Source: an uncultured Gammaproteobacteria bacterium (lineage in GTDB: Bacteria; Patescibacteriota; Patescibacteriia; Magasanikbacterales; UBA922). Taken from it: a DNA stretch of 64,000 nucleotides. Shown here piece after piece: positions 43,398 through 64,000 of this stretch; within the stretch, counting starts at the first letter, position 1; every line of letters begins with the position of its first letter. The notes under the pieces were generated by a model. It was not told where the DNA came from. It did no database searches and was given only the letters and a program-made list of their open reading frames with translations. The stretch spans positions 22,181 through 86,180 of the forward strand of contig CAYQNA010000002.1 of assembly GCA_964418775.1 (NCBI GenBank), read 5' to 3'. The position numbers were made by a program, and so were the translations under genes.

Positions 43398-43409
43398 AAA
43401 TAATGTTCT

Positions 43410-43443: not shown

Positions 43444-43531
43444 TTTAAGGACTGCTTGGCTACCGGGGATTCCGGCATCGACCTTGAGGCTAGCAGTTTC
43501 CCTGATTACTCAGGGGCACCATATACCGTAT

Positions 43532-43570
43532 GGCTATCAACCCTGTACCAAGTACAGAACTGATAGCCGC
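43532..43570. promoter_or_regulatory. Nested palindrome: candidate operator or activator site upstream of the surface-protein gene
   Basis: GGCTATCA-acc-CTGTAC-caa-GTACAG-aac-TGATAGCC, outer 8-bp and inner 6-bp inverted repeats. Confidence 0.4.
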
Positions 43571-43576
43571 ACGGTA

Positions 43577-44827
43577 TTATTTTTTTGTGGAGGTTGACGC
43601 AGTCACAGTTGAGCTGGCACTAACCACAATTGGTAGATTTTTGGTTTCAACCAGAATTTGTTGTGTCTCACCCGCGGTTTGATTCAAATCCTTGAGCTTG
43701 CTTACAGCTTCGCGCAAATGGCCACCGTCAATTGTTTTTTGAATATCACCAACCGAAGCTTGCAAGGCTACAGTCTTTTGCTCGACCGCTTGAATAACAC
43801 TCGCCGGTACTATAGTAGCCGCAGCACCAGACGAAACTGTTACAGTTGTGCTTGCACTCGCTGTAGTGGTGCTAACGCCCATAGTAGATGTAGCTGGAGT
43901 TGAACTTGCAATACGGATTTCAACCAACTCAGTGGTAGAAGTAGCTTGCTGTTTGATGTTCTTAACTGCCTGTTCCAAACCAGATGTTGTTTCCGCCAAT
44001 TGGAATAACTTAGTATTTACCAAAATCGCTACAGTGGCACTGTTTGGAGACTCAGGTGAAGTTTTTTCTTGTGCTGTTACCACAGCCTCTACAGTTGTCA
44101 GAGTACTTGCATTCACTGATTTAACAGTATCAACTACGGTTTTAGTTAACTCAGTATCAACACTATTGGCAGCTGGCACAGTTTCCTGCAAACTCTTTAC
44201 AATTTCCGTGGCATTTTTATTTACATCAGTTACAATGGCAATCGCCGCTGGTAATTCGGCCTTAGAAACAGCTTGAACCTGAGTGTTTACAGCCTCACTT
44301 GCAGTTTTAACTGCTTCGGCTACATCTTTGGCCGCGACGTTCAAATCATTAACCGCTTTGGTGCGCACCGCACTGTCGTCCGACGTGGTACGCTCAGCCA
44401 CCGCACGCTTAATATCTTCGGTACGATTCTTAGCCAAACTCAAATGCAATTGTGCTTTTTCACTATCAGACGCAACCAGGCTCTTTACCGCGACTTCGGT
44501 ATTTTGAGCCGCGCGCTTTACAGACCACAAACGGTCTCCAGGCAAACTATTAAACGAGGCGCTCACACTGGCAATCCAACCACCAGTGGTCAAAACTGCC
44601 ACCAATAAACCAGCCAAAACCGGCTTAGCCAAACGCCAGGCACCAGCATTGCCAAAAATATATTTAACTTCTTCAGTGCGCGCAGACCAGGCTACTTTCT
44701 CGGGTACAACAACTGTGTTACCAATCTGGCTCATCAAACGTGCACGATTTTTTTGTGCCCATGCCAAATCAGGCTGAATGGTTTCAGCCTTTTGTAATTC
44801 GCGTAATTTGGCACGCATGGTTTGCAT
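43577..44827 (-). CDS. Anti-sigma factor-like membrane protein (single TM, coiled-coil Ala/Thr/Val-rich extracytoplasmic domain, DUF5667-like)
   Basis: N-terminal cytoplasmic region, TM LAGLLVAVLTTGGWIA, long repetitive extracellular part; start 2 nt after the ECF sigma stop. Confidence 0.55.
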   Translation of the reverse strand: MQTMRAKLRELQKAETIQPDLAWAQKNRARLMSQIGNTVVVPEKVAWSARTEEVKYIFGNAGAWRLAKPVLAGLLVAVLTTGGWIASVSASFNSLPGDRLWSVKRAAQNTEVAVKSLVASDSEKAQLHLSLAKNRTEDIKRAVAERTTSDDSAVRTKAVNDLNVAAKDVAEAVKTASEAVNTQVQAVSKAELPAAIAIVTDVNKNATEIVKSLQETVPAANSVDTELTKTVVDTVKSVNASTLTTVEAVVTAQEKTSPESPNSATVAILVNTKLFQLAETTSGLEQAVKNIKQQATSTTELVEIRIASSTPATSTMGVSTTTASASTTVTVSSGAAATIVPASVIQAVEQKTVALQASVGDIQKTIDGGHLREAVSKLKDLNQTAGETQQILVETKNLPIVVSASSTVTASTSTKK

Positions 44828-44829
44828 AA

Positions 44830-45396
44830 TTACGAATTCTTTTTTTCAAGTTCATCCAGACGTTCTTTGGCGAGTTTAAGCGCCCGGTGCAGTGTAACCC
44901 GCACGTTGGTCTGGGTTTTTTCTAAAATTTGAGCAATTTCACCGACTGACAAGTCATCCACGTAGCGAAGCAGCAAAATTTCTTGATACTCACGCTTAAG
45001 TTGACTAATAACCCGCAGAATCGGCTGGGCATCGGCCCGGCTCTCGGCGGCAGCAAATTGTTTATCTACTGCGCCGATATTTTCCGCACTTTCCAGTGGC
45101 AGATTAGTATTATGCGCCTTGGCTCGATAAAAATCGACCAAACAATTGCGCGCAATCCTATACACCAGCCCGCTAAAGCTTTGGACTTCGTCAGGTTTGT
45201 GCTCCACAAGGTAATGCCACGTTTTAAGGAACACTGTGCTCGTAATATCCTCAGCTTCTTCCTTGTTGCCCACCTTAAAGTAGACAAAGCGGTAGATTTT
45301 CGCCAAGTACAGGTCATACAAAGCCCCAAAAGCCTGGGGGTCGCGACGGGTAATGACCTGATAGACCAGTTTTTTTTCACTAAAAAGATGTCGCAT
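44830..45396 (-). CDS. RNA polymerase ECF-type sigma-70 family factor
   Basis: Region 2 (FLKTWHYL, LVYRIARN) and region 4 (LSVGEIAQILEKTQTNVRVTLHRAL) motifs; 188 aa. Confidence 0.8.
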   Translation of the reverse strand: MRHLFSEKKLVYQVITRRDPQAFGALYDLYLAKIYRFVYFKVGNKEEAEDITSTVFLKTWHYLVEHKPDEVQSFSGLVYRIARNCLVDFYRAKAHNTNLPLESAENIGAVDKQFAAAESRADAQPILRVISQLKREYQEILLLRYVDDLSVGEIAQILEKTQTNVRVTLHRALKLAKERLDELEKKNS

Positions 45397-47734: not shown

Positions 47735-47763
47735 TTGACAAGAATAACAAACTCGGCGATACT
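47735..47763 (+). promoter_or_regulatory. Candidate sigma70 promoter (TTGACA-17-GATACT) for the Cys-rich lipoprotein gene
   Basis: TTGACA 47735-47740; 17-nt spacer; GATACT 47758-47763; a 10-bp inverted repeat (acttcagctt/aagctgaagt, 47806-47853) follows in the leader. Confidence 0.4.
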
Positions 47764-47913: not shown

Positions 47914-49992
47914 ATGAAATACATGACCTTGTGTCTAGTTGCAGCCGTGACGAGCTGCGGCTTTAACTTCTCCCTGGATGGGAAGTGTTTCGAGGGAGAG
48001 ACCTACATCACTAACCCCAACTGCCCGCCGCCCGATGGCGCGGACAGCACGGACAGCGTTGACGGTCTCGATGCAATTGACAGTGTCGGCACTACCGGCA
48101 TCGACACGGTCGACGGCATGGACGGGATCGCTGCAGTCGTGGACGGTGTCGCCGGTGCGTACAGCACCGACGCCACAGACTCAACCGATACCACCGACGG
48201 CACGTCTGACGGGACGGATGGAACCGATGCCACCGATGGCACGGAACCGACTGACTCCGAGGATGGGTCAGATAGCACTGATGCTACTGATGGCACAGTG
48301 GTACTAACCTGTGTTGTGGATACGGACTGCATCGACGACGGCAACCCGTGCACGACAACCAAGTGCGACCCGAATGGCGAGTGCGTGCACCCGCCGAATT
48401 CGGAGTTGTGCGACGATGGTAATGCGTGTACGGCCGGCGACGTTTGTCAGGCCGGTGAGTGTACGGGCACGAGCATCACGTGTGATGACGCTAACCCCTG
48501 CACCACCGACACGTGCACGTCGCCGAGTGGCTGCGTGTTCGTATTCAACACAGCGACGTGCGATGACGGCAACCCGTGCAGCGTTAGTGATGTTTGCAAT
48601 TCTGGCACGTGTCAGAGCGGCAACAACATGTGCGCGTGCAAAACGGACACCGACTGCGTGCCCCACAACGACGACAACCTGTGCAATGGCCAGCTCCATT
48701 GCCTGGTGTCCGGTGGTGTGGGCAACTGCGTGCCGGACGAATCCACGGTCGTCGTGTGCAACACGAATCAGAACACGGACTGCCTTACAGCGGTCTGTGT
48801 GCCGGCCACAGGTGAATGCGCGCTTCAATCCACGCACGAGCAGGAAGCATGCTCGGACGATGGCGATGCGTGCACGATCCTCGAGACGTGCCAGAACGGC
48901 CAGTGCTTAGGCAAACCGCGGGTCTGCGACGATGACGACCTCTGTACGGGGACGGAATCGTGCGATCCAACGAGCGGTTGTGTTCCGGGTACGCCAAAGG
49001 TGTGTAATGACGGGGAGGCTTGCAACGGCCTCGAAACCTGCATCACCATCTACGGCGGCTGCATCCCGGGCATACCCAAGAACTGCAGTGACAGCGATCC
49101 CTGCACGCTCGATTCGTGTACGTCAGGTTCGGGCAACTGCGTCCACGATGTCGGGGCCCTTGACTGTGATGATACCAATCCCTGCACGTTCGATCTGTGC
49201 GTGCCAGTGGTTGGCTGTCTGAACCAGGGGGGGCTCCAGCTCGAGGACATTGCGTGCAACGACGGCAACGCCTGCACTACTGTCGACGCGTGCAACAGCA
49301 CGGGGCAGTGTGTGGGCAATGAACCGGTCGTGTGCACGGCCATGGACCAGTGCCACGATGCGGGTACATGTGACGTGGCGACGGGCGAGTGTTCGCAGCC
49401 GACGGTGAAAAACAGCACGCCCTGCAACGACGGGACGCTGTGCACCACCGGTGACGTTTGTGTGGAAGGTACGTGTGTGGGTAACGAACTTCCACCCTGC
49501 GTACCTGATGCTTGCCACACCAAAGGTTTCTGCAATCCAGAGGATGGCCAGTGTTACCAGGAAGATGCGGACCTCGTACAGTGCCCGACTGACAACGTGC
49601 CCTGCACGTATGACAGTTGGTGCGACCCCCTGGTGGGTTGCTATCACCTGGACATTGGTCGTTTGCCAAATTCCTACGGCAACTGCGGCGTTGACTCTAC
49701 TCTGACGTCTGGCAACCTAGACTTTGACGAATTTCCAGACTACGCTGACCAGGATGCAGATGCGGACGGAATCTGCGACCCCGGTGTATTCTGGGGTGGA
49801 CAGAACTGCACATATCTCCCCAATGACAAGCGGGACAATGCGTCCCGGGTTTATAACCCGGACCAATCTGACCAGGATGGCGATGGTCTCGGGGACGTCA
49901 TTGATCCTGACGCTGATGGGAGTGGGTGCTACGATGCCTCGTTCCCCATCATTCCGGCCGGGGCCTGCGTGGATCTCCCGGTCTCACCATAA
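47914..49992 (+). CDS. Lipoprotein with an acidic Thr/Asp-rich linker, about 14 Dictyostelium-type (CTDC) Cys-rich repeats and C-terminal thrombospondin type-3 Ca-binding repeats
   Basis: Lipobox LVAAVTSC; linker DSTDTTDGTSDGTDGTDATDGTEPTDSEDGSDSTDATDGT; repeats CDDGNPCTTTKCDPNGEC / CDDGNACTAGDVC / CDDANPCTTDTC...; TSP3 segment DQDADADGICD...NPDQSDQDGDGLGDVIDPDADGSGC; GC elevated over flanks. Confidence 0.75.
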   Translation: MKYMTLCLVAAVTSCGFNFSLDGKCFEGETYITNPNCPPPDGADSTDSVDGLDAIDSVGTTGIDTVDGMDGIAAVVDGVAGAYSTDATDSTDTTDGTSDGTDGTDATDGTEPTDSEDGSDSTDATDGTVVLTCVVDTDCIDDGNPCTTTKCDPNGECVHPPNSELCDDGNACTAGDVCQAGECTGTSITCDDANPCTTDTCTSPSGCVFVFNTATCDDGNPCSVSDVCNSGTCQSGNNMCACKTDTDCVPHNDDNLCNGQLHCLVSGGVGNCVPDESTVVVCNTNQNTDCLTAVCVPATGECALQSTHEQEACSDDGDACTILETCQNGQCLGKPRVCDDDDLCTGTESCDPTSGCVPGTPKVCNDGEACNGLETCITIYGGCIPGIPKNCSDSDPCTLDSCTSGSGNCVHDVGALDCDDTNPCTFDLCVPVVGCLNQGGLQLEDIACNDGNACTTVDACNSTGQCVGNEPVVCTAMDQCHDAGTCDVATGECSQPTVKNSTPCNDGTLCTTGDVCVEGTCVGNELPPCVPDACHTKGFCNPEDGQCYQEDADLVQCPTDNVPCTYDSWCDPLVGCYHLDIGRLPNSYGNCGVDSTLTSGNLDFDEFPDYADQDADADGICDPGVFWGGQNCTYLPNDKRDNASRVYNPDQSDQDGDGLGDVIDPDADGSGCYDASFPIIPAGACVDLPVSP

Positions 49993-50128: not shown

Positions 50129-50157
50129 TTGACAAAAGGGCTGTTTTTTGGTATACT
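50129..50157 (+). promoter_or_regulatory. sigma70 promoter TTGACA-17-TATACT with extended -10 TGn, for GT4 gene 50185
   Basis: ctaTTGACAaaagggctgttttttggTATACTctc. Confidence 0.6.
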
Positions 50158-55703: not shown

Positions 55704-57110
55704 CTATTTGGTTTGTTTTTTGAGTGCAATTCCGGCCAGCGCCATCCCAATTGGCAACCACAGCACACTATTCAAATACGACGTATTAAATAATTGGAAC
55801 ACCATGGCGCCCGCGCACATACACAAGAGCGCTTGGTAAAACACATCATCGCGCACGCGCTTCCCCACTGCCCACAACACCCAACCCAAAAATCCAACAA
55901 ACGTCACGAGCCCAAACACACCCGTTTCAATCACCATTTTTTGGAGCAAACCATGCGCGTCCAAAGCTTCGCCATATTCAAGTGTGTACACATATGAGTT
56001 CGCGAGGAGTTCCACAAATGTGCCCGGCCCATAGCCAAACCACGGCTTCACACTTGCATATGCCAAGGCAATTTCCGTCACTTCCCAACGTGCGCCCGAC
56101 GAACTCGATACAATGTTAGACGTTAAGAAATAGGCCATGTATCCAATCACGGCCACAGCCGCCGACAGCAACAAAACCTTAGCTTCCGGGGCTAATGATT
56201 TTAATTTCACAATAGCCTCGCGACGATACAACCACAACGCAATCACGACCTGCACACCCAAACTAAGCCAAGCGGCGCGCGACAAGGTTAACAAACAAAT
56301 CGTCACCATAAACCCAATGCCCCACCACAACCATTGCTGTGCCCGGCGACGATAATACCACGCCAACCACACCCCAATCGGAATAATCGCGACCAGCGGC
56401 TCGGCCAATTGATTATGATTCACGCCCAGTGGCGTAAACCCACCAATCGCAAATGGCACAGCGCGCACCCAACCCTGCGGCGGCACCAAAAATAACGACA
56501 CCAAACCATACACACTAATTGCCACACCCACGCCAAACCACACCTTGGCCACGCGCAACCACGCGGCCGGCGTCGTCACCAATCGCCCCACCATCACCAC
56601 ATACGCCACATACACAAACACATACAAACGCAACCACACATACCACGCACTACTCGTATCATGGTCATACACCAATTGCGCGGACGCTGCAGACAACAGC
56701 AAAAATGCCCCATACCATTGCCAACCAGGCACACGCCACTCACCCCGCTGCCATGCCGGCAAACGCAAGAGCCACGCCACCGCCAAACTCGCGGCCATCA
56801 GCACAGCCAAAAATTCCGCAATCGGCGCATTCAACGTCGCCAAACCAGGCACTTCGCGCGCCCACGCATACACCGAAAAATCAATCATGTAGCCCGTGAA
56901 AAAACTCGTCAGCGCCAGCAGCGACACACCCACCATTGGCCTAAATGCAAACAAACCAACAATCCCTGCCACAGCCAAAACAACCGCCAGCGACGGAATA
57001 AACATGAGCAGCCCCGCATATCCCAACCCCAAGGCCAACACCAGCAGCACCATACTACAACCCCATGGTGCCCGCGGGTTAAAATAAGCTAAAAAATTTG
57101 GAGCGTACAT
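55704..57110 (-). CDS. O-antigen ligase/polymerase family membrane protein (Wzy_C-like)
   Basis: 468 aa, about 12 TM helices, LSRAAWLSLGVQ loop motif. Confidence 0.6.
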   Translation of the reverse strand: MYAPNFLAYFNPRAPWGCSMVLLVLALGLGYAGLLMFIPSLAVVLAVAGIVGLFAFRPMVGVSLLALTSFFTGYMIDFSVYAWAREVPGLATLNAPIAEFLAVLMAASLAVAWLLRLPAWQRGEWRVPGWQWYGAFLLLSAASAQLVYDHDTSSAWYVWLRLYVFVYVAYVVMVGRLVTTPAAWLRVAKVWFGVGVAISVYGLVSLFLVPPQGWVRAVPFAIGGFTPLGVNHNQLAEPLVAIIPIGVWLAWYYRRRAQQWLWWGIGFMVTICLLTLSRAAWLSLGVQVVIALWLYRREAIVKLKSLAPEAKVLLLSAAVAVIGYMAYFLTSNIVSSSSGARWEVTEIALAYASVKPWFGYGPGTFVELLANSYVYTLEYGEALDAHGLLQKMVIETGVFGLVTFVGFLGWVLWAVGKRVRDDVFYQALLCMCAGAMVFQLFNTSYLNSVLWLPIGMALAGIALKKQTK

Positions 57111-57158
57111 ACGCGAAAATTATGCGCGTAGTATACTAAAAAAATGCGTGCGCAGCAA

Positions 57159-57195
57159 TAAAAAAATCTCCCAATGTTCTTGGGAGATTTTCAAT
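57159..57195 (-). terminator. Rho-independent terminator closing the high-GC island transcript(s)
   Basis: Minus strand: AUCUCCCAA-GAACA-UUGGGAGAU followed by UUUUUUU. Confidence 0.65.
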
Positions 57196-57243
57196 TCAAT
57201 TTCTTGCTGTTCACAGTACCAAATTTGATGCTGTAAATGGCAA

Positions 57244-57326
57244 GGGGGAGGTTCAGCGAACTTCGACTCCCCTGGCTCAGTCGCTCTCGCGACGAACCCA
57301 GGGAGGAGTTCGAACTGACACTCCCC
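57244..57326. repeat. Two related GC-rich hairpins (GGGGAGG-N16-TCCCC) in the 3' region of the first island gene
   Basis: gggggaggttcagcgaacttcgactcccc (57244-57272) and gggaggagttcgaactgacactcccc (57301-57326). Confidence 0.4.
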
Positions 57327-57451
57327 ACTGTTGCCCTCCTTGGCCGCCGGAACGCTCGCGCGCCCGACCGGCGGTTCACCTAGCGGAGTATCTCTCCGTC
57401 ATCCTCGCGAACCCGCGAGGCGAACCGCCGACCAGGAATCTGGTCTGCGGC

Positions 57452-59194
57452 CTAGTTCGTCTCCCCCCACCAGTTGGTCCCGTTGGCCAGCTCGTTGTAG
57501 TCAACCTCGACCGGCATCGTGACGGTCGTCCCGTCCGGGAAGACGAGCTTCATCGTCACGCCGCCGAGCACGAGCCAGTCCGTCGGGCTGGTGTTGAAGC
57601 CCGTGAGCCACGTCATGATGTTGTACTTGCCGTTGATCGGCCGCAGGAGCTTGCCGTTGACCTTGCACCGAAGCCGAGGCTTGGTGGCAGTCGCGGGCGG
57701 GAGCTGGCCGGCGGTGAGCGACTTGCTGTACACCATCTTGACGATGTCACCCGACGTCGGGATGTTCTGGCTGATCTGCGGGTTGTACTCGTCGAACTCG
57801 ATGATCGTCGAGCCCGCCGAGTTTGTGCAGCCGACGTGGAGCTGGGAGATCTCCGCGACGGAGGGGAGGAGGGACCGGAGGATCGACCACTCGGCGAAGT
57901 ACGTAGCGCCCGTGGTGACGGGCGGGATGGTGGTGTGCTCGCAGAGGCCGGTCTGGCCGTTGCAGCTGTCCGCCGTCCCGCCGTCGCCGTCGTCGCAGTT
58001 CTTCGCCGCGTTGACGCACCCCGTAGCCGCGACGCACGTGTCCGTCGAGCAGGCGTCGCCATCGTCGCAGGCGCCGTGGTTCGGGACGTGGGCGCAGCCC
58101 TGGCCGGGGTAGTAGGTGTCGACCGTGCAGGCGACGCCGTCGTTGCACGACGGCTCCGCGTTGCACTGACCCTCGTAGCACCCGTAGGGGCAGACGATCC
58201 CGGCCGAGCCGAGCTGGACGCACTGGTGAGCCTGGCACTGGTAGACGAAGCTGACGAGCGAGTTGCCGTTGCAGGCGTCGGGGACCTCGCAGTCCGTGTC
58301 GACGTCGCACTCCGGGTTCGGCGTGAACACGCAGCTCCCCGTCGCCGGGTTGCAGCTGTCCGTCGTCGTCGAGTCCCCGTCGTTGCACGTCTTGTGCGTG
58401 AACAGGCACCCGCCGATCGCCTCGTTGTACTCGTCCGTCGAGCAGGCGTCGCCATCGTCGCAGTCCGGCTCCTGCACGCAGAGCCCCTCGGAGCAGCCGA
58501 AGCCGCACGCCGGGCCAGCCGCCTTCGGGTCCTCGGCGACGCACGTTCCCGCGATGCAGGCGTAGAGCCGGAACATCGGGGTCGTGCCGTCGCAGAAGAG
58601 GTCCGTCGGACAGCCAGCGTCGGAGACGCACTCGGTCGGCACCGCGGGCGGCGCGTAGCAGATGACCAGCGTCGAGTCCGGATCGATCTCCACCGCGTCG
58701 AGCTTCCCGTTCTTCGGGTTGTTGTCGACACCGCTGAAGAAGACCGTACCGCCGAAGGCGCACTGCTTGAGCGTGGCCGCGACGGCGCCGTTGATGACGG
58801 TGTCGCCCTGCGGTCCCTGCTCGCCGGTCTCACCCTTCTCTCCGTCGGTCCCCGGATCGCCCTTGTCACCCTTCCCGCCGGGCTTGCCCGGCGCTCCGTC
58901 TTCGCCGTCCTTCGCGTCATCGATGCAGAGGCCCTGAGGACCACAGATGAAGCCGGAGGGACAGACGCTCTCGGAGTTGCAGAGGGTGAGGTCGATGCCG
59001 TCCGTCGCGTCGGTGGTGTCGGTCGCGTCGTCCCCCTCGGTGCCGTCCGTGGCATCCGTGGAGTCCGTCGTGTCGGTGTTGACCTGGGCGTCGCCCTTGT
59101 CATCGCCGCCGAGCGCACAGCCGGAGAAGCTTCCCACGATGACGCTCGTGAGCAGGCGGGCCGTGGCCAGCTTCAGGTTCTTCAGGTTCTTCAT
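57452..59194 (-). CDS. Lipoprotein with acidic Thr/Asp linker, collagen-like Gly-X-Y segment, Dictyostelium-type Cys-rich repeats and a C-terminal beta-rich domain (GC3 about 90%)
   Basis: Start trimmed from the track's TTG (59272) to ATG at 59192-59194 (MKNLKNLK..., GGAG 5 nt upstream); lipobox-like FSGC; TDSTDATDGTEGDD; GEDGAPGKPGGKGDKGDPGTDGEKGETGEQGPQGD (12 triplets); CDDGDACSTDEY, CNDGDSTTTDSC, CNDGVACTVDTY, CDDGDACSTDTC, CDDGDGGTADSC. Confidence 0.7.
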   Translation of the reverse strand: MKNLKNLKLATARLLTSVIVGSFSGCALGGDDKGDAQVNTDTTDSTDATDGTEGDDATDTTDATDGIDLTLCNSESVCPSGFICGPQGLCIDDAKDGEDGAPGKPGGKGDKGDPGTDGEKGETGEQGPQGDTVINGAVAATLKQCAFGGTVFFSGVDNNPKNGKLDAVEIDPDSTLVICYAPPAVPTECVSDAGCPTDLFCDGTTPMFRLYACIAGTCVAEDPKAAGPACGFGCSEGLCVQEPDCDDGDACSTDEYNEAIGGCLFTHKTCNDGDSTTTDSCNPATGSCVFTPNPECDVDTDCEVPDACNGNSLVSFVYQCQAHQCVQLGSAGIVCPYGCYEGQCNAEPSCNDGVACTVDTYYPGQGCAHVPNHGACDDGDACSTDTCVAATGCVNAAKNCDDGDGGTADSCNGQTGLCEHTTIPPVTTGATYFAEWSILRSLLPSVAEISQLHVGCTNSAGSTIIEFDEYNPQISQNIPTSGDIVKMVYSKSLTAGQLPPATATKPRLRCKVNGKLLRPINGKYNIMTWLTGFNTSPTDWLVLGGVTMKLVFPDGTTVTMPVEVDYNELANGTNWWGETN

Positions 59195-59340
59195 CTTCGC
59201 TCCAACTGCAGGCCGACTCTTGTGTGAGGCCCGCTTCTCGGTGTTGCGGCGAAGGTAGTGTCCCTCCGCCAAATTGCCACGCCATCCCGTTCCCCCGTTC
59301 TCCCCAGCTTGCGCCAGGGCGAGTTAACGGGACGGTATAG

Positions 59341-59390
59341 TGTGGACAAGAAAGAGTTTTGGCTAATCTAAGCCCTTTCTTATCCACACT
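59341..59390 (-). promoter_or_regulatory. Conserved leader element A: 13-bp inverted repeat (GTGGACAAGAAAG / CTTTCTTATCCAC) flanking the core TTTTGGCTAATCTAAGCC, in the 5' UTR of gene 57452..59194
   Basis: Core GGCTAATYTRAGCC also present at 60980-60993 (element B). Confidence 0.45.
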
Positions 59391-59445
59391 AAGGCGTGTA
59401 TTTATCTTGTCTTGGGTTGTAAGGAACCCTTTAATTTAACTTGAG

Positions 59446-59474
59446 AGTATACCACTTTTTGTGGGTTTTGTCAA
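59446..59474 (-). promoter_or_regulatory. sigma70 promoter TTGACA-17-TATACT (extended -10), near-identical in flanks to the promoter at 50129
   Basis: Minus strand: ctaTTGACAaaacccacaaaaagtggTATACTctc; shares CTATTGACAAAA and GGTATACTCTC with 50126-50161. Confidence 0.6.
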
Positions 59475-59704
59475 TAGACTTACCCACTCATCCACAAGCC
59501 AATTTTGACTTAGAGATGAGTGAGGGGAAGCGTTTGACTGCCACCCCCGCCGCTCCGATCGCTGTGCGACCGTCGAACGACGAGGGGAGTTCACGCTCCC
59601 CACACCTCCTTGTGCGCTGCCGGACAAATCCGGACCAGCGCGGCTTCCACCTGAACGCGACGTAAACGCCGCACTCTTAGACCCTGATGGAAAAGGGTCG
59701 CATA

Positions 59705-60688
59705 TCACCAGCCGACTTGGAGCCCGAGCTGGAGCCGGGGCAGGAACAGCCAGTCGGCCGTGTCGAAGGTGTCCCCCTTCTTGTAGGCCTGAACTCCGTA
59801 GAGCTCGACCCCGATCTCGAGGAACTCCTTCATCCAATCGGCCTTCGACCACCACAGCGGCCGGAAGTTGGCCCCGAGACCGAGCCCGTAGAGGAACTCG
59901 TCCGCGTGGTCAACGACCGCGTGGGAGGAGGTTCCCGACTTGAGAGCGAAGGACAAGTCCACCACCCCCAGCCAGGCCCCGATCTGAGCCCCAACGTCCC
60001 AACCGATCGCACGATTACCCGCTTCATTGTCCGCAGTGAGGTATCCGCTGACCCTGGCCACGAGCGAGTCGTTGTGCCAGCTGAAGGTGAGTCCCGTCGA
60101 GGAGATCATGTCGGCGCCGACGAAGTCGAGGCCCGTGCTGATCCGCGCCCCGAAGTGCGAGATGATCGAAACCGGCGCGGGCGAGCCAGCCGGTCCGGCG
60201 ATACCTTGCGGTCCCTGTCCTCCGGGCGCCCCAGCCTCGCCATTGCAGACGTAGTGCGGGTTACCATTCACATCGATCACGCTGATCCCGCCGGCGGGGC
60301 AATTCTCCCCCACCGGCTCCTCCGAGACGATGGGGGTGAAACCATCCATCCCGTCACGACCCTCCTTCGGCTTGGTGCTGCCATACTTACCGCAGACGAT
60401 GCGCTCACCCTTCTTGTTGACGCCCCAGTACCCGGGGCCCTTGGGCTTGCAGCAGAAGGCGTACGTATACGCCTTCGTCTCGCACTTGTCCTCACAGTCC
60501 GCACCAGCGCGGCACTGTTCACCGTCCTCCGGCGAGCTGCTGACCTTCCAGACGCACTTGCCGTCCTGGCAGTGTGCGTTCGGTCCGGCGCAGTCGTTGT
60601 CCGACTTACACTCAGACCTAGGCGGCTTGGCCGCCGCGACACCGGTGACGAGGAGGAACGCGAGCAAAAAGGAACCGAACCGATTCAT
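59705..60688 (-). CDS. Secreted Cys-rich protein with a short collagen-like segment and a C-terminal about 170-aa beta-barrel-like domain ending in Trp (OMP-like)
   Basis: Signal peptide MNRFGSFLLAFLLVTGVAAA; 14 Cys in the first 150 aa; GEAGAPGGQGPQGIAGPAGSP; C-terminal amphipathic beta-strand pattern ...LQLGLQVGW*; GC3 very high. Confidence 0.65.
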   Translation of the reverse strand: MNRFGSFLLAFLLVTGVAAAKPPRSECKSDNDCAGPNAHCQDGKCVWKVSSSPEDGEQCRAGADCEDKCETKAYTYAFCCKPKGPGYWGVNKKGERIVCGKYGSTKPKEGRDGMDGFTPIVSEEPVGENCPAGGISVIDVNGNPHYVCNGEAGAPGGQGPQGIAGPAGSPAPVSIISHFGARISTGLDFVGADMISSTGLTFSWHNDSLVARVSGYLTADNEAGNRAIGWDVGAQIGAWLGVVDLSFALKSGTSSHAVVDHADEFLYGLGLGANFRPLWWSKADWMKEFLEIGVELYGVQAYKKGDTFDTADWLFLPRLQLGLQVGW

Positions 60689-60915
60689 GATGCCCTCCTG
60701 GGCATGCCGGCCTAACGCGTCCCACCGCGCTGGTCAGCTCTTGTCTATGCTAGACCCTGAAAAGAACTTGCGCACCCAGGTGGGACCGGGCGCGACTTGA
60801 CCCTTAAGTTTCCTTAAGACGTTCGCCACAGGGGCGAGGTTGAAGCCCAGTAGGAACCAACCTCGTCTCTCTGGTTTAGGTCAACACTACTCCTAACTTA
60901 TTTAAATAACCAAAT

Positions 60916-60944
60916 ATCATATCAAAAAAAGACTATTTTGTCAA
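60916..60944 (-). promoter_or_regulatory. Candidate sigma70 promoter TTGACA-17-TATGAT for gene 59705..60688
   Basis: Minus strand: ctaTTGACAaaatagtctttttttgaTATGAT; same CTATTGACAAAA -35 context as the other two promoters. Confidence 0.45.
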
Positions 60945-60960
60945 TAGTCAAGCCAAGGCA

Positions 60961-60995
60961 GTGGATAAATCATTTTTTTGGCTAATTTGAGCCAT
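60961..60995 (-). promoter_or_regulatory. Conserved element B (GTGGATAAA...TTTTGGCTAATTTGAGCC), a degenerate copy of leader element A
   Basis: About 70% identity to 59341-59374 over 35 nt, including the 14-mer GGCTAATYTRAGCC. Confidence 0.4.
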
Positions 60996-60998
60996 TTA

Positions 60999-61072
60999 CC
61001 AGACTACTCCAGAGAAACCTTCTCTAGACTAGTCTGGCGGGGCCGGGGCACGATGAATTGAATCATCGCACC
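60999..61072. repeat. Two long imperfect hairpins downstream of gene 61173..62468
   Basis: ccagacta-ctcc-agagaa-acc-ttctct-agac-tagtctgg (60999-61037) and ggggcacgatgaatt/gaatcatcgcacccc (61043-61072). Confidence 0.4.
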
Positions 61073-61172
61073 CCGCCCCCAACCCTCCCCACCCACCCGC
61101 CGAAGCGGATGGGCGCCCGTCCCTCCGCTGAGCGTTGCGCGACCCTAGGGGATCACCGCTCAGTGGGAGACA

Positions 61173-62468
61173 TCACGACGGCGGGCAGCCGTTCGGCTTC
61201 GCGCCCGGCGTGCCGTTGCACGCGTCGCACGCGTCACCGACGCCGTCGCCGTCGAAGTCGGCCTGCCCGACGTTCGGCGCCGCGGGGCAGTTGTCGCACG
61301 CGTTGCCGAAGCCGTCCTTGTCGCCGTCCGTCTGGTTGACGTTGGCGAGCCCCGGACAGTTGTCGAGCGCGTCCGGCACCTTGTCATCGTCGCCGTCGAG
61401 GGCGCAGATGCCCGGGGTCGGCGTGCTGCCGGTGACGTCCTGGAGGCAGAGCTCCGGCGGGCCGTCCTCGGTGCCGCACGACTTGCCCGTGTCGGTGCCG
61501 CACATCGGCTCGAGACCGCACTCCGTGCTCGCCGCGTCCGGCGTGCACGGCTCGCACGCCCCGTCGAGGCAGTACTCGCCCACGCCGCACTGCACGCCCA
61601 TCGGCGCCGCCCAGTGCTTGCACGACGTGCCGCTGCAGCCGTCGAGCGTGCAGAGGTTGCCGTCGTCGCAGGACTTCGCGGTGCCGACGCAAGCCCCGTT
61701 CGCGCACTTGTCCGAATCCGAGCAGAACTGCCCGTCGTCACACGCCACGCCGTCGGCCTTCTTCGGGTTCGTGCAGTCGCCCGTCGTGGGCTCGCACGTA
61801 CCCGGGAGGTGGCACTGGTCGAGGGCGGTGCAGGACTTGTCGGTGCCGGGGTCGCACTCACCCGCGGTGCACACGTCCCCGACCGTGCACTTGTCACCGT
61901 CGTCGCACGACGTGCCGTCGGCCGCGACCGGGTTCGAGCAGAGCCCGGTGGCCGGGTTGCACGTGCCCGCGACGTGGCAGTCGTCCTGCGCCGTGCACGT
62001 GACCGGGCTGGAACCCGAGCACATGCCCGCCTGGCAGGTGTCGACCGTCGTGCACATGCTGCCGTCGCTGCACGACGTGCCGTCACTGACCGGCGTGTGC
62101 CCGCACTTGTAGTTCTGACACGAGTCCGTGGTGCAGGGGTTCTTGTCGTCGCAGCCCCCCGCGTTCACGCACTGGATCTCCTCGGCGCAGTTCGTCCCGT
62201 TCTTGTCCTTCACGTAGGAGCAGAACCCCTTGGTGTCCCCCTCCTTCTTGAAGCACATGTACTCGTCGACGAGCGCGCACGGGTCCTCGTCGTGCGGGTT
62301 CCCGGTGCAGTCGGAGGGCATCGTGCACTCCGTGAGGTCGGCCTTGAGGACCTGCACCTTGTCGGCCTCCTTGACGGAGACCGGCGACCCCGTGGACGCC
62401 TGAGACGCACAGCCGAACACCGTCGCGACCACGAAGAACTTCGCGGCCCACTTCATGAGATTACGCAT
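61173..62468 (-). CDS. Lipoprotein with Dictyostelium-type Cys-rich repeats and C-terminal thrombospondin type-3 repeats (GC3 above 90%)
   Basis: Lipobox VATVFGC; CDDKNPCTTDSC, CSDGSMCTTVDTC, CDDGDKCTVGDVC, CDDGQFCSDSDKC, CDDGNLCTLDGC; TSP3 segment DGDDDKVPDALDNCPGLANVNQTDGDKDGFGNACDNCPAAPNVGQADFDGDGVGDACDAC. Confidence 0.75.
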   Translation of the reverse strand: MRNLMKWAAKFFVVATVFGCASQASTGSPVSVKEADKVQVLKADLTECTMPSDCTGNPHDEDPCALVDEYMCFKKEGDTKGFCSYVKDKNGTNCAEEIQCVNAGGCDDKNPCTTDSCQNYKCGHTPVSDGTSCSDGSMCTTVDTCQAGMCSGSSPVTCTAQDDCHVAGTCNPATGLCSNPVAADGTSCDDGDKCTVGDVCTAGECDPGTDKSCTALDQCHLPGTCEPTTGDCTNPKKADGVACDDGQFCSDSDKCANGACVGTAKSCDDGNLCTLDGCSGTSCKHWAAPMGVQCGVGEYCLDGACEPCTPDAASTECGLEPMCGTDTGKSCGTEDGPPELCLQDVTGSTPTPGICALDGDDDKVPDALDNCPGLANVNQTDGDKDGFGNACDNCPAAPNVGQADFDGDGVGDACDACNGTPGAKPNGCPPS

Positions 62469-62633
62469 TTCTACCTCTAGCTATCTGTCTTGCGCAAGAT
62501 CACCCCACCCCTTTTGCTCATCTATGAGCGAGAACCCGAACGGGTTACAGCACAGGGTGGATGGCGACCCCTGCACGGCCGGATGATTAGTACGAATACT
62601 AAGCATTCGGCCATGGCTGAACCTGAACGCGGT

Positions 62634-62662
62634 TTATTACCACGTCTGTAATTTTTTGTCAA
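62634..62662 (-). promoter_or_regulatory. Candidate sigma70 promoter TTGACA-17-TAATAA (TGn extended) for gene 61173..62468
   Basis: Minus strand: cacTTGACAaaaaattacagacgtggTAATAAacc. Confidence 0.4.
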
Positions 62663-62687
62663 GTGTTAGCAAACTCTTGCTAAATTA

Positions 62688-62713
62688 TTAAACACCCCGA
62701 GTAGGGTGTTTAA
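62688..62713 (-). terminator. Terminator-like hairpin downstream of gene 62728..63816
   Basis: ttaaacaccc-cgagta-gggtgtttaa, 10-bp stem; on the minus strand it is followed by an A/T-rich run aataattt. Confidence 0.45.
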
Positions 62714-62727
62714 AGGGAATTATTGAG

Positions 62728-63816
62728 TTATTGGAGGTTGAGTCGATGGTTGATTTTGGGGTCTAAAAGTTGATGAACAGGCGTACTCGCCACCTCGGCG
62801 AGGCGGTGGCAGGCCTTGGCGAGGGTGGTGTGGAGGGCGTGGGCAGCGGCGGTGTTGGTTTGGCGGGTGGCGACAAGGGCGTCGTAGGCCCAGAGGCCGA
62901 GTGCGATTTGGTGGACGAGTTGGTCGAACTGGTCGTGTTTGGTGGAGGGCAGGCGTGCGGGATAATGTGGGTCGCCAAGGAGGAGTTGGCGCGCTTTTTC
63001 CGCACGGAGCGTGATAGTGCCTGAAACTTTTAATTCGGCGAGGCCATTCTTCCCTACCGTAACTGCTGCCGGAACTTTGCCGGGCAACATGACTTCGACC
63101 GTGCGGATATTTTCGTGTACTGATGTGTGCGTTGGTTTTATTGGCGCATGTGTTTCTTTGACTGCAACGGTGCCGGTGATTGTTGGCCAAGCGGCGCGGT
63201 GTGGAAATAAATGCCACACACCTAAACCATCGAGTACTGGGTCGCGCAGTGTGGTCGTGTTATCGGGAAAATGGATAACCACATGGTCAGCCATTGGTTC
63301 AACGCGACTAATGGCAGTTTGGTTATACAATTCTGGCGCACTTACATCGGGCTCAAGCACAATTTCGTGGCCAGCACGTTCATTTAATTCTGATACGAAT
63401 TGTTCAATCGCACTAGTTGGTTTATGCGCCAGAGCAATTGGCGCGGATGCAGTTGGTTTATACAAGACAGTTTTTTGGCGAAAGCCATCGACTGACAAAT
63501 GTCCGTCATCACGCAACCGTGTTTGGGCTTGCGGTGTGGTTTCGCCTAATAATTGTGCACGCAAATCAGTGGGAAAATATTGGGGATTTTCCATTAAGCT
63601 GCGATGCACGTCGCTCATGCGCTGGGCGCGCAATTCTGGATCTGTTTGCGTGTGTGCTTGCGCGAGCGCGTGCACAACATCAACCACAAACCGCTGCTCA
63701 AATGGCGCTGCGGAAATATTGTGGAGCGTTGACCACGCGGTCACTGCCTCGACTTTGTCGGCCGGGCTGGCGTGCGGCGCTTGCCACAATTCTAATAATT
63801 CGGCCAACAACGCCAT
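62728..63816 (-). CDS. Hypothetical protein (no family recognised)
   Basis: The track ORF (start 63912) overlaps the upstream gene by 94 nt; internal ATG (MALLAELLELWQ) at 63814-63816 lies 2 nt after the upstream stop, matching the stop-N1-2-ATG packing used throughout the window. Confidence 0.35.
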   Translation of the reverse strand: MALLAELLELWQAPHASPADKVEAVTAWSTLHNISAAPFEQRFVVDVVHALAQAHTQTDPELRAQRMSDVHRSLMENPQYFPTDLRAQLLGETTPQAQTRLRDDGHLSVDGFRQKTVLYKPTASAPIALAHKPTSAIEQFVSELNERAGHEIVLEPDVSAPELYNQTAISRVEPMADHVVIHFPDNTTTLRDPVLDGLGVWHLFPHRAAWPTITGTVAVKETHAPIKPTHTSVHENIRTVEVMLPGKVPAAVTVGKNGLAELKVSGTITLRAEKARQLLLGDPHYPARLPSTKHDQFDQLVHQIALGLWAYDALVATRQTNTAAAHALHTTLAKACHRLAEVASTPVHQLLDPKINHRLNLQ

Positions 63817-63818
63817 AC

Positions 63819-64000
63819 TTAGCGGTTGCGCACAACAATCACACTCATAATTAGCGCACCGACCACAAACCCAAGCGCCATATTTACGGGAATATTTGGA
63901 CGCACTGGCCATGGTGTGACTACTGGATTATCAACTACGCGGATCGTCATGTCGCCGCCAACATATTCAAAGCCTTTGATGGCAAGAGTCTGCGCAGCGG
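63819..64000 (-). CDS. C-terminus of a polysaccharide co-polymerase (Wzz/PCP chain-length determinant)-like protein; partial, starts beyond window end
   Basis: Hand translation ...LAIKGFEYVGGDMTIRVVDNPVVTPWPVRPNIPVNMALGFVVGALIMSVIVVRNR*: proline-rich PxxPxxP motif followed by a terminal TM helix, the hallmark of PCP TM2. Confidence 0.45.
   Translation of the reverse strand, partial: AAQTLAIKGFEYVGGDMTIRVVDNPVVTPWPVRPNIPVNMALGFVVGALIMSVIVVRNR

Follow-up and report, generated by a model that had tools for sequence, protein, structure and literature searches.

We identified, in a 64,000-nucleotide stretch of DNA (the window) from a probable ultra-small Patescibacteria (CPR) bacterium, a GC-rich block of three genes, g3, g2 and g1. 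Our reading, to which we assign a probability of roughly 0.6, is that the block is an old, conserved cell-surface module forming a polymorphic attachment and recognition apparatus, and that its GC content is maintained. The block (57,235–62,720) has a GC content of 64.0% compared with 46.8% elsewhere in the window, which confirms the anomaly of a high-GC trio inside a GC-poorer genome that the first-pass annotation described, although at a lower value than the roughly 67% proposed there. The GC content of the coding sequences is 0.676 for g1, 0.642 for g2 and 0.695 for g3, and their GC3 values (Table 1) compare with about 0.38–0.52 in most host genes; the earlier figure of more than 90% GC3 is correct for g1 and g3 but not for g2. 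The codon preference of the block is the opposite of the host's (Lys AAG, 1.00 versus 0.36; Leu CTC, 0.79 versus 0.11). The block boundaries are abrupt and match transcription-unit limits, with no GC3 spill-over or gradient into the genes flanking the block.

Table 1. Positions in the window of the g3–g2–g1 block, its flanking elements and the paralogue g4.
Feature	Coordinates	Strand	Description
g3 promoter	62,634–62,662	−	TTGACA (62,662–62,657), 17-nt spacer, TAATAA (62,639–62,634), TG before −10; read from sequence
g3 5′ leader	62,469–62,633	−	~165 nt; low-GC part, then GC-rich
g3	61,173–62,468	−	431 aa, secreted; Cys-rich Dicty/Myxo-type repeats (51 Cys); GC3 0.96
g3 3′UTR	60,999–61,172	−	GC-rich; G-runs at 61,099–61,071, then conserved long hairpin
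g3–g2 spacer and g2 promoter	60,916–60,998	−	low-GC; small hairpin GGCT..AGCC, A-run
g2 5′ leader	60,689–60,915	−	about 220 nt, strongly structured
g2	59,705–60,688	−	327 aa, secreted; GC3 0.83
g2 3′UTR	59,513–59,704	−	conserved structured RNA with ~100-nt hairpin
g1 promoter	59,446–59,474	−	TTGACA-17-TATACT, 11/12, extended −10 TG; conserved in L085
g1 5′ leader	59,195–59,445	−	about 250 nt
g1	57,452–59,194	−	580-aa lipoprotein; GC3 0.94
g1 3′UTR	57,225–57,451	−	conserved GC-rich structured RNA; 8 helices, one of 41 bp
Intrinsic terminator of g1 transcript	57,162–57,192	−	13-bp stem and T-run
g4 (outside block)	47,914–49,992	+	paralogous lipoprotein, 692 aa; GC3 0.70

As originally proposed, the three genes are co-directional open reading frames for whose products a scan with a PROSITE PS51257-type rule gives export signals: a lipobox (SFSGC) in g1, a Sec-type signal (VAAA followed by K) in g2 and, in g3, which is probably a lipoprotein, a near-lipobox (TVFGC) whose h-region is short. 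The start of g1 is most likely the ATG at 59,194 (MKNLKNLK...), with GGAG 6 nt upstream, and the protein comprises a D/T/G-rich linker, 12 collagen-like G-X-Y triplets (Pfam Collagen, 28.4 bits; threshold 27.2) and Cys-rich Dicty-type repeats containing 41 Cys (Dicty_CTDC, 45.4 bits; gathering score, GA, 27). The g3 repeats score slightly under the Dicty_CTDC GA (26.4 bits) and are followed by three C-terminal thrombospondin (TSP) type-3 Ca-binding repeats (TSP_3, 26.4 bits; threshold 25); a profile of g3 orthologues matched the type-3 repeats of COMP (E 3e-31) and thrombospondin-2 (E 4e-24) in the PDB. The modules of g2 are a small Cys-rich segment, a DUF7151-like segment, 7 G-X-Y triplets and, at about residues 177–327, ending in W, a predicted 8-stranded OMP-like beta-barrel, which supports the C-terminal barrel suggested for the middle gene. 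The description of these modules as rare in bacteria did not hold, as more than 5,300 proteins match g3 at E ≤ 1e-3 and the named ones are bacterial (Myxococcota, Planctomycetota and Acidobacteriota). We likewise rejected the label "eukaryotic-ECM-like", which derives from Pfam family names for repeats that are abundant in bacteria. Outside its orthologues, g3 matches MYXO-CTERM and Polyangia proteins best. On the basis of homology searches, g2 appears essentially restricted to the lineage of the window: among 1.8e9 representative proteins there was one full-length homologue and two that share the C-terminal domain only, and all three sit in the same kind of locus.

Each gene is preceded by a low-GC TTGACA-17 promoter of the resident type, as had been noted, and that of g1 is near-identical to a resident promoter at 50,129–50,157, before a host glycosyltransferase. 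The g2 promoter (60,944–60,916; TTGACA-17-TATGAT) scores 11/12 and has an extended −10 TG, whereas the g3 promoter is weaker than the other two and is rejected by the promoter scan rule because its −10 box ends in A; L002, an assembly of a relative, keeps its −35 box and TGn extended −10. The transcribed flanks are structured. In the g3 leader, the pairing of a hairpin is kept with different letters, GGCCGAATG/CATCCGGCC in the window and AGCTGATT/AATCAGCT in L002 (alignment A3). The g2 leader folds with an MFE of −86 kcal/mol (z −2.8), has a consensus fold from three relatives, and contains both a terminator-like hairpin with a U-rich tail (60,794–60,771) and, within its final hairpin, the Shine-Dalgarno sequence AGGAGG. 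A hairpin in the g1 leader (59,388–59,341) has DnaA-box-like arms, TGTGGATAA and TTGTCCACA (repeat D16, motif search), and D16 also involves the g3–g2 spacer, where a conserved TTATCCAC motif lies at 60,960–60,968.

The 3′UTRs show covariation. Across the window, L002 and L003 (alignment A2, with the L085 copy read besides), the long hairpin of the g3 3′UTR, CCAGACTA...TAGTCTGG at 61,037–60,999, has an unchanged outer stem and an inner stem that pairs via different letters. The g2 3′ hairpin, which starts AAGGAGG..GGGGAG and ends CTTCCCCTC, shares a motif with the paralogous g1 3′ hairpin, and covariance model R1 matches both 3′UTRs (59,513–59,614 and 57,233–57,333). From three sequences each, the g2 3′UTR consensus fold has 68 pairs with compensatory changes in 9, and that of g1 has 77 pairs with 96% of cells paired and 16 pairs changed on both sides, compared with 0–4 for slid partners and 6.7 ± 2.1 for shuffles (0/500 reach 16). 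The g1 terminator is just upstream of the promoter of a Wzy-family gene, a position kept in L083 and L082.

Parts of the cluster recur in seven independent assemblies (L002, L085, L086, L088, L083, L082 and L003), which come from six other samples and from related organisms that are probably also Patescibacteria/CPR; one of the seven has all three genes in order. L001 equals window positions 58,434–64,000 at 100% identity. The g3–g2–g1 order, spacers with TTGACA-17-TAnnnT promoters and UTR motifs recur in these relatives, which agree with the window in their low-GC promoter spacers and in their GC-rich UTRs. Intergenic regions are 83–90% identical in nucleotide sequence (83–84% for the g3–g2 region) versus 60% for the g2 coding sequence, while protein identity is 75% and 53% for g3 and 48% for g2; no aligned cysteine of mature g3 is changed in the orthologues P0002 (75%) and P0012 (53%). 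Four-fold sites of g3 are 61% identical to L002 and 51% to L003, with a saturation expectation of 46%, and 46/58 and 27/45 of the respective differences are G<->C, at a GC4 of 0.83–0.97; between g2 orthologues these sites are 33–44% identical at a GC4 of 0.77–0.88. As these sites are near or at saturation, mostly through G<->C exchange, and GC4 is still 0.77–0.97, the GC-rich composition is maintained, which points to a locus-specific force acting on the transcribed units. In the distant relative L088, GC3 is 0.92, 0.82 and 0.88. Since related organisms share this spelling, the module is old and actively maintained rather than freshly imported DNA, although allele divergence could come partly from replacement instead of in-place evolution.

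The coding sequences have also diversified. Counterparts of g1 are present in L083, L082 and L088, with stalks that can be aligned (30–38%), but their C-terminal ~150 aa are unalignable with one another and with the window. The 3′UTR immediately after the g1 stop codon is conserved despite these unrelated C-terminal domains, and in L083 the Wzy-family neighbour is 91% identical, yet the g1 C-terminal domain is unrelated. In L086, g2 retains its barrel and 3′UTR, and its N-terminal half has been swapped out.

The block borders a large envelope-glycan locus. The paralogue g4 has a D/T/G linker, Cys-rich repeats, a TSP3-like C-terminus and its own promoter (TTGACA-17-GATACT, 47,735–47,763), and is 45% identical to g3 across 151 aa; its L082 orthologue has a GC3 of 0.55. 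The probable host assignment draws on the named homologues of a neighbouring gene, which at no more than 42% identity belong to Peribacteraceae, Magasanikbacteria and Paceibacteria, and on a weak, sub-threshold Pfam match to DUF5667 in the window.

By implication, the first-pass annotation took the block to have come recently from a high-GC donor. Transfer of an unameliorated 5.5-kb island from, for example, Myxococcota would fit the GC3 of 0.83–0.96 against about 0.44 in host genes, the MYXO-CTERM and Polyangia matches of g3 and the weak MtsC-like and Myxo_Cys_RPT signals, but is largely refuted and, we think, very improbable. Diverged relatives have the cluster in common with the window, spacers and UTRs included, synonymous sites are saturated and G/C nonetheless, g2 is confined to the lineage, the resident g4 has an intermediate GC3, and every gene is set apart by AT-rich, host-type spacers. 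Our search for a donor lineage returned no close candidate (the best g3 matches are 46–56% identical over partial lengths), no tRNA genes or flanking repeats were found around the block, and, in agreement with the earlier reading, integrase and transposase are absent from the large window ORFs scanned (at least 188 aa), as is reverse transcriptase. The Cys-repeat and TSP3 modules may ultimately derive from a Myxococcota-like source; if so, the event was old, with something keeping the genes GC-rich. On composition alone, a contig of high GC might have been joined to one from a CPR bacterium, or the long plus-strand shadow ORFs might be the real genes; public gene callers chose the opposite strand in L082 and L083. 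We give this almost no weight, and agree with the first-pass annotation that the block is no assembly chimera: the right edge is reproduced in L001 and L002 and the left edge in L083 and L082, the junctions recur in assemblies from seven SRA/ENA samples, the window's own included, the minus-strand frames are backed by Shine-Dalgarno sites, signal peptides and conserved cysteines as well as by Pfam and PDB matches, and long shadow ORFs are an expected by-product of a GC3 near 0.95.

It is conceivable, if doubtful, that an ancient acquisition was followed by repeated allele replacement, with the conserved promoters and UTRs as homology arms and recombination-associated GC-biased conversion (gBGC) keeping GC high; the high-GC alleles would be drawn from a shared pool in the CPR population or, time after time, from a partner organism of high GC. 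Higher GC3 tends to mark recombining bacterial genes, according to one published study (PMC4450053). Conserved UTRs adjoining non-homologous coding sequence, the differing g1 head beside its 91%-identical neighbour and the half-replaced g2 of L086 point in the same direction. However, reported gBGC effects in bacteria amount to a few percent, against the roughly 50 points at issue here, the lack of a GC3 gradient in flanking genes is awkward for regional gene conversion, the inter-gene spacers remain AT-rich, and two scans of JGI metagenomes returned nothing. We are similarly tentative about selection of GC-rich spelling at the level of RNA or translation. The benefit could lie in mRNAs that are very stable and heavily structured, or in codons rare in the host (CTC, AAG, GAG, CCG and ACG) being used on purpose, which could throttle or time the translation of disulfide-rich secreted proteins. 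GC-richness tracks the transcribed units exactly, including the structured UTRs, and ends at the promoters, the UTRs covary, and codon choice is the inverse of the host's. Against this, no case is known of selection raising GC3 to 0.95 where genome GC is 47%, g4 functions at a GC3 of 0.55–0.70, and codon selection by itself fits poorly with GC-rich UTRs.

The best reading of the block is that of a lineage-specific, fast-diversifying cell-cell adhesion set built from Myxococcota-type parts. Each gene would be transcribed from a strong housekeeping-type promoter of its own, placed within a short AT-rich spacer. The long structured leader and 3′UTR of each gene probably act on mRNA stability and on translation or attenuation. 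What maintains GC may be RNA- or codon-level selection, biased repair or conversion tied to frequent allele replacement, or both. As judged from domain content, g1–g3 share the domain kit of myxobacterial TraA/TraB, in which Cys-rich repeats accompany a variable domain and TSP-3 repeats accompany a beta-barrel (PMC6372800). Patescibacteria are thought to be without an outer membrane (PMC12102498), which counts against our reading in that it leaves no evident site for the membrane-type barrel of g2. We propose that g3 would be a membrane-anchored lipoprotein with Cys-rich and Ca-binding TSP type-3 repeats, that g2 would be secreted and combine a short collagen-like stalk with an 8-stranded membrane-type barrel, and that g1 would be a lipoprotein whose collagen-like stalk and Cys-rich repeats are followed by a hypervariable head at the C-terminus. 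This content makes a role in adhesion plausible, and together the three proteins would most likely constitute a polymorphic apparatus for cell-to-cell attachment and recognition.

Between positions 57235 and 62720 the GC content rises to 64.0%, against a mean of 48.7% for the window, or 46.8% once its two GC-rich stretches are set aside. As the first-pass annotation had described, this block is filled by three co-directional minus-strand open reading frames (ORFs), designated g1, g2 and g3, whose GC content at third codon positions (GC3) lies well above the ~0.38-0.52 of most other genes in the window. Their codon choice is the inverse of that of the host, with AAG accounting for 1.00 of Lys codons (0.36 in the host), CTC for 0.79 of Leu codons (0.11) and CCG for 0.71 of Pro codons (0.27). 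Within the spacers that separate the island genes GC falls to 27-45% for ~150-200 nt, and the edges of the block are sharp and located at promoters. No spill-over of GC3 into the genes flanking the block was seen; the neighbouring Wzy-family gene (55704-57110) has a GC3 of ~0.6 even in L084, a related contig in which its upstream neighbour is a low-GC AAA_14 gene. The block is also flanked by a gene for a 394-aa orphan protein without family match (62728-63912, minus strand), the last ~80 codons of which are Pro/Thr/Ala-rich with a GC3 of 0.75; strong positive GC skew is found at 62700-63000, and conservation of this protein was seen for its C-terminus only, in L002. A lipoprotein gene outside the block, g4, is a resident paralogue that is 45% identical to g3 across 151 aa. 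Its GC3 is 0.70 in the window versus 0.55 in the orthologue on L082 (8523-9749), and the family is therefore present in the lineage at near-host or ordinary composition too.

Features of the GC-rich block, its paralogue and the related contigs
Feature	Position	Strand	Description
g1	57452-59194	minus	580 aa; start codon ATG with GGAG 6 nt upstream; GC3 0.94
g2	59705-60688	minus	327 aa; GC3 0.83
g3	61173-62468	minus	431 aa; GC3 0.96
g4	47914-49992	plus	promoter 47735-47763; lipoprotein with D/T/G-rich linker, Cys-rich repeats and TSP3-like C-terminus
Terminator-like hairpin	60771-60794	minus	in g2 5' leader; 9 bp, 7 of them GC, then U-rich tail CAAGUUCUUUU
L002			end of flanking host gene, promoter, g3 orthologue (75% aa), spacer, g2 start
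L003			g3 orthologue (53% aa) and spacer start
L085			g3 end, spacer, g2 orthologue (48% aa), 3'UTR, g1 promoter
L086			TSP3/Cys-repeat gene, spacer with TTGACA-17-TATACT, barrel protein P0188, 3'UTR homologous to that of g2
L083, L082			Wzy-family orthologue (91% and 74% aa), conserved g1 3'UTR, GC-rich g1-type gene
L088			all three gene types, order unchanged; GC3 0.92, 0.82, 0.88

The junctions between low-GC and high-GC DNA are reproduced in independent assemblies, which bears out the earlier view that the block is not an assembly chimera. One contig (L001; Logan, SRR12487046) is 100% identical to window 58434-64000, runs 610 bp beyond it, and ends within g1 at a 30-nt exact repeat (58041-58070 / 58434-58463). 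Parts of this locus, junctions included, were also found in seven further assemblies, which come from six other samples. Contigs tend to break within the repeat-rich g1-type genes, and on L082 (2-1126) and L083 (3-623) gene callers chose the wrong strand, so that the public calls are the opposite-strand shadow ORFs of these GC-rich genes and no Pfam hits are recorded for their products. L084 and L088 both derive from sample SRR22388291 and represent a more distant relative, in which a low-GC AAA_14/DUF4143 gene lies upstream of the Wzy-family orthologue on L084 and the GC-rich trio is found on the other contig, L088; the position of the trio may thus not be fixed, or the sample may hold two organisms. 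The lineage was seen in Logan and ENA assemblies only, and two scans of JGI metagenomes, with the conserved spacer pattern and with the g2 family alignment, returned no matches. When species-representative genomes were scanned with the g3 alignment, there were high-GC repeat proteins only among the matches listed; the one labelled "Patescibacteria" (L056) lies on a uniformly 69% GC contig and is not comparable. A further protein, P0045, was rejected as a relative, its context being an ordinary diderm genome (VgrG, LysR).

Named homologues of the Wzy-family neighbour belong to Candidatus Peribacteraceae, Magasanikbacteria and Paceibacteria (~40% identity), which indirectly suggests that the host is probably a Patescibacteria/CPR bacterium. 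Outside the block, the window is taken up by a large locus for envelope glycans, with more than 15 glycosyltransferases, sugar epimerases and dehydrogenases, methyltransferases, a flippase, two Wzy_C-family proteins, a subtilase, and an ECF sigma factor adjoining a DUF5667-like protein. Between 1988 and 37382 this locus is unusually long and almost uninterrupted on the minus strand, and includes the more than 15 glycosyltransferases, a 763-aa C-methyltransferase/epimerase fusion, an FkbM methyltransferase and the flippase; two ORFs of ~500 aa (25065-26627 and 34446-35927) are without family match. On the minus strand at 39537-45396, the ECF-type sigma factor (44830-45396) and DUF5667-like protein (43577-44827) are accompanied by a 1286-aa protein without family match, an arrangement also kept in L082. 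It is possible that the first two form a sigma/anti-sigma pair controlling a giant surface protein.

Like classical genomic islands, the block combines sharply atypical base composition and codon usage with surface or adhesion cargo. It differs from them in that it is conserved in diverged relatives, its composition does not decay, and the usual hallmarks were not found: there is no tRNA in the 64-kb window, no integrase, transposase or reverse transcriptase domain in the scanned window ORFs of at least 188 aa, and no flanking direct repeats. For integrase, transposase and repeats this agrees with what had been noted from the sequence at the outset. Synonymous change was followed at four-fold degenerate sites, restricted to codons that specify the same amino acid in the orthologues compared. 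For g3 these sites are 61% identical to L002 and 51% identical to L003, where base composition predicts 46% at saturation, and 46/58 and 27/45 of the respective differences are G<->C transversions; GC at four-fold sites (GC4) stays at 0.83-0.97. The four-fold sites of g2 are fully saturated (33-44% identical) at a GC4 of 0.77-0.88, and ordinary host genes have a GC4 of ~0.5-0.7. Under the host regime, sites with this much change would have drifted to A/T; this has not happened, which means that A/T variants are being removed.

The first-pass annotation had read the composition as acquisition from a high-GC lineage. A recently acquired island was rejected, since the block is present in seven related assemblies and retains a GC4 of 0.77-0.97 despite synonymous saturation; the composition is old and is maintained among diverged orthologues. 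No donor-like sequence was found in a collection of 5.8 billion proteins which, together with the restriction of g2 to the lineage, rules out recent transfer. An old transfer of Myxococcota-type modules is possible. The long-term maintenance of such an extreme intragenomic GC contrast is an uncommon feature, and our literature search turned up no earlier case of maintained GC-rich genes in CPR.

The promoters of g1 and g2 match TTGACA-17-TATAAT at 11 of 12 positions, with an extended -10 TG, and are the best sites in a scan of the island that recovered four sites where 0.9 were expected. They equal the sole 11/12 site of the neighbouring 20 kb, which lies ahead of a host glycosyltransferase (50129-50157). 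The host-type promoters proposed from the sequence are supported, with a weaker one, TTGACA-17-TAATAA, ahead of g3. Identity to relatives is 83-84% in the g3-g2 intergenic region and 90% in the g2-g1 region, compared with 60% for the g2 coding sequence and 80% for that of g3, such that noncoding DNA is better conserved than g2 itself. The g2 leader of ~220 nt folds at -86 kcal/mol (z -2.8), with the Shine-Dalgarno sequence in its last hairpin, and its terminator-like hairpin, in which one pair shows a compensatory change between relatives, suggests transcription attenuation.

The 3'UTRs are likewise structured. A consensus of 77 pairs was obtained for that of g1; across three relatives, 96% of its cells are paired and 16 pairs have changed on both sides, compared with 0-4 when partners were slid and 6.7+/-2.1 in shuffles, none of which reached 16 (0/500). 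The g2 3'UTR consensus has 68 pairs, nine of them compensatory. The two 3' hairpins are paralogous, with AAGGAGG..GGGGAG...CTCCCC in common, and were not detected by their covariance model after g3 or g4. The same model recovers exactly two copies per genome, on which ground a dispersed repeat was rejected. The g1 transcript ends at a classic intrinsic terminator (57192-57162). A search of the whole window against Rfam gave nothing at gathering score and two chance-level hits at E<=1 within 57000-62900; the leaders and 3'UTRs are accordingly conserved structured RNAs outside any Rfam family. GC-richness therefore tracks transcribed units, and its UTR part is explained by RNA structure.

Several further sequence elements were seen in these noncoding regions. 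A perfect Shine-Dalgarno-like AAGGAGG forms the 5' foot of the long hairpin in every cluster 3'UTR (57338-57345 and 59606-59612, minus strand, and also in L086 and L088). No conserved ORF lies downstream of it, and small ORFs were rejected, as the relatives differ by 1-nt indels that disrupt the reading frames and leave base pairing intact; ribosome or anti-SD mimicry is a possibility. The g1 leader contains TTATCCACA, the only perfect DnaA-box sequence in the 64 kb, which forms a hairpin with an inverted 8/9 copy (59341-59349 and 59380-59388). These are among the four of 23 DnaA-box matches with at most one mismatch that fall in two island spacers, the others lying at 59488-59496 and 60960-60968. 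Upstream of the g2 promoter, TTATCCAC is kept in L002, L003 and L085, and the DnaA-box-like motifs are possibly a regulator-binding site. The g3 3'UTR carries a run of G-tracts, GGGTGGGTGGGGAGGGTTGGGGGCGGGG (61071-61099, minus strand), kept as G-tracts in L002 and L085, which could form a G-quadruplex; pilin antigenic variation in Neisseria needs such a structure.

The predicted products are assembled from repeat modules that had been proposed from the sequence, and profile searches recovered each in turn. Dicty_CTDC (PF00526) matches g1 in three stretches at 45.4 bits (gathering score 27), with g3 (26.4) and g4 (23.9) slightly under that score and each carrying 4-6 regex copies of CxDDxxC[ST]xDxC. 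Collagen (PF01391) matches g1 at 28.4 bits (threshold 27.2) over 12 G-X-Y triplets at residues 97-132, and g2 has seven such triplets without a Pfam collagen match, both runs being short relative to known bacterial collagens. TSP_3 (PF02412) matches g3 at 26.4 bits (threshold 25), reflecting three DxDxDGxxDxxDNCP-type calcium-binding repeats at its C-terminus (residues 358-417), and a profile of g3 and two orthologues against the PDB retrieved the type-3 repeats of COMP (E 3e-31) and thrombospondin-2 (E 4e-24). These modules had been considered rare in bacteria, yet g3 has more than 5,300 protein matches at E<=1e-3 and those named are bacterial, from Myxococcota (several annotated MYXO-CTERM), Planctomycetota and Acidobacteriota. 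The earlier interpretation of the block as real, domesticated and adhesin-like stands, and its reading as recent and eukaryote-specific does not.

Export signals were scored by a PROSITE PS51257-type lipobox rule (an uncharged h-region, then [LIVMFWSTAG]2-[LIVMFYSTAGCQ]-[AGS]-C within the first ~35 residues). Matches were found in g1 (...VIVGSFSGC) and g4 (...VAAVTSC), and g3 (...VVATVFGC) is a near-lipobox that fails solely for a Lys at -10. No lipobox is present in g2, which has a predicted AxA-type Sec site, the signal ending AAA before K. The barrel predicted for this middle gene was corroborated, its C-terminal domain fitting a closed 8-stranded antiparallel fold of the OmpA/NspA/OmpX type. 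The 149 aa of this domain, searched with homologues against Pfam and NCBIfam, matched no family even at E up to 5. In a HMMER search of 1.8 billion representative proteins, one full-length homologue of g2 was identified (P0186, 47%), and two proteins (P0188 and P0212) match only over the C-terminal 150 aa; its middle module (DUF7151/collagen-like) is common to many proteins.

Sequence variability is concentrated in particular domains. The last ~150 aa of g1-type proteins (window, L083, L082 and L088) have no significant mutual similarity, and 30-38% is reached in alignments of their collagen and Cys-repeat stalks. L083 has a flanking Wzy-family gene that is 91% identical, and alignment holds through its 3'UTR as far as the stop codon but is lost in the adjoining coding sequence; in P0188, the g2 barrel and 3'UTR are kept and the N-terminal half is different. 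As judged from these alignments, the pattern is that of a polymorphic surface receptor undergoing allele replacement between conserved flanks. A Pfam search with the g1 C-terminal domain returned nothing, and its AF2 model, built without an alignment, has a pLDDT of 32. Conserved structured UTRs flanking hypervariable coding regions are an uncommon feature. Integron gene cassettes do not describe the locus, as there is no integrase among the scanned ORFs and every gene has its own promoter, nor does a diversity-generating retroelement, with no reverse transcriptase domain in the scanned large ORFs and no near-repeat of the g1 C-terminal region in the island.

We conclude that the block probably belongs to a known class, the polymorphic bacterial surface-adhesin loci. 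Its closest functional analogue by domain architecture is myxobacterial TraA/TraB, which it resembles without being a member. TraA has a polymorphic PA14-like variable domain, Cys-rich repeats and MYXO-CTERM, TraB has a barrel with TSP-3 and OmpA domains, the traA/traB genes overlap in an operon, and the two proteins act jointly as cell-cell adhesins (PMC6372800). In both systems adjacent genes encode cell-surface products (predicted for the island) with variability concentrated in one domain; g1, like TraA, joins a polymorphic variable domain to Cys-rich repeats, g2 plus g3, like TraB, provide a beta-barrel and TSP type-3 repeats, and the nearest sequence relatives of the island repeats are Myxococcota proteins. 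The modules are nonetheless arranged differently, being spread over three proteins, with the variable domain C-terminal rather than N-terminal and PA14-like. The island has no MYXO-CTERM, PA14 or OmpA hits and instead has lipoprotein anchors and collagen-like stalks, its genes lie 480-510 nt apart under their own promoters, and its host is a probable monoderm CPR bacterium.

Other known systems are like the trio in part. MYXO-CTERM Cys-rich proteins and MtsC (NF047638, TIGR04201) have the same CxDDxxC[ST]xDxC and TSP3 repeats, at 40-56% identity over partial lengths; however, MtsC scores 48.3 bits in the TSP3 region only (equivalog cut-off 350), the MYXO-CTERM model (TIGR03901) has no match in g1-g4, and the full-length g3 orthologues found, P0002 and P0012, lie on short contigs with the same UTR and spacer elements as the CPR locus. 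Thrombospondin and COMP (PF02412; PDB 3fby, 1yo8) have only the type-3 repeat in common with g3, which lacks the TSP C-terminal lectin-like domain and EGF modules, and type-3 repeats are widespread in bacteria. Scl1/Scl2, Legionella Lcl and BclA are, like g1, secreted and membrane- or wall-anchored, with a G-X-Y stalk and variable globular head, but with 12 and 7 triplets the stalks of g1 and g2 are very short, the g1 anchor is a lipobox and not LPXTG, and the SclA and Lcl NCBIfam models score 26.6 and 17.9 bits against g1 in the collagen region only (cut-offs 325-500). Small outer-membrane barrels (the OmpA/OprF N-terminal domain, NspA, OmpW, OmpX) end, like g2, in an aromatic residue; the g2 barrel differs in having no sequence-family match, in sitting behind a Cys-rich, collagen-like extension, and in being encoded in a lineage thought to lack an outer membrane, as has been proposed for Patescibacteria (PMC12102498). 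An OMP-like barrel in a probable monoderm is an uncommon feature.

What keeps the block GC-rich may be explained in several ways. Pure codon selection leaves the GC-rich UTRs unexplained. Regional biased gene conversion (PMC4450053) agrees with the evidence for allele replacement. Against it stands the lack of GC3 spill-over into the flanks, and known cases are much weaker. Selection at the RNA level agrees with the coincidence of GC-richness and transcription units, although we know of no precedent of this magnitude. Repeated import from an unsampled high-GC pool is also possible.

In the mechanism that we propose, the products of g1 and g3 would be lipoproteins anchored in the cell membrane with rigid, disulfide-rich, collagen-like, calcium-binding stalks, and g1 would display a strain-specific head. 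A membrane-type barrel on a short stalk would be added by g2, destined either for the bacterium's own envelope or for the outer membrane of a host. A more speculative joint reading, to which we assign a probability of about 15%, is that the trio is a host-attachment and recognition device of an episymbiotic CPR bacterium, coupled to a locus-specific mechanism that keeps GC3 at ~0.9. In this episymbiont reading, the parts would be the same as those of myxobacterial kin recognition and outer-membrane fusion (TraA/TraB), g1 and g3 would be anchored in the membrane of the symbiont, the self-inserting 8-stranded barrel of secreted g2 would lodge in a diderm host's outer membrane, the host being possibly a myxobacterium, and host-strain specificity would be set by the hypervariable head of g1. 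Within a genome of 47% GC, whole transcription units would be held at GC3 ~0.9 over long spans of evolution, through recombination-coupled GC-biased repair with the conserved structured UTRs as exchange arms, or through RNA-level selection. Intragenomic compositional compartmentalisation of this degree would, to our knowledge, be undescribed in bacteria.

Sharp compositional islands are usually read as recent horizontal transfer; here, comparison of orthologues shows an old composition that is being maintained, and island callers based on GC would therefore misassign the block. The persistence of a GC3 of 0.83-0.96 through synonymous saturation in a 47% GC genome offers a clean test of synonymous or RNA-level selection versus biased conversion. 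For host attachment and recognition in CPR bacteria, the trio is a testable candidate: a conserved and strongly promoted set of two lipoproteins and a barrel, with a hypervariable head.
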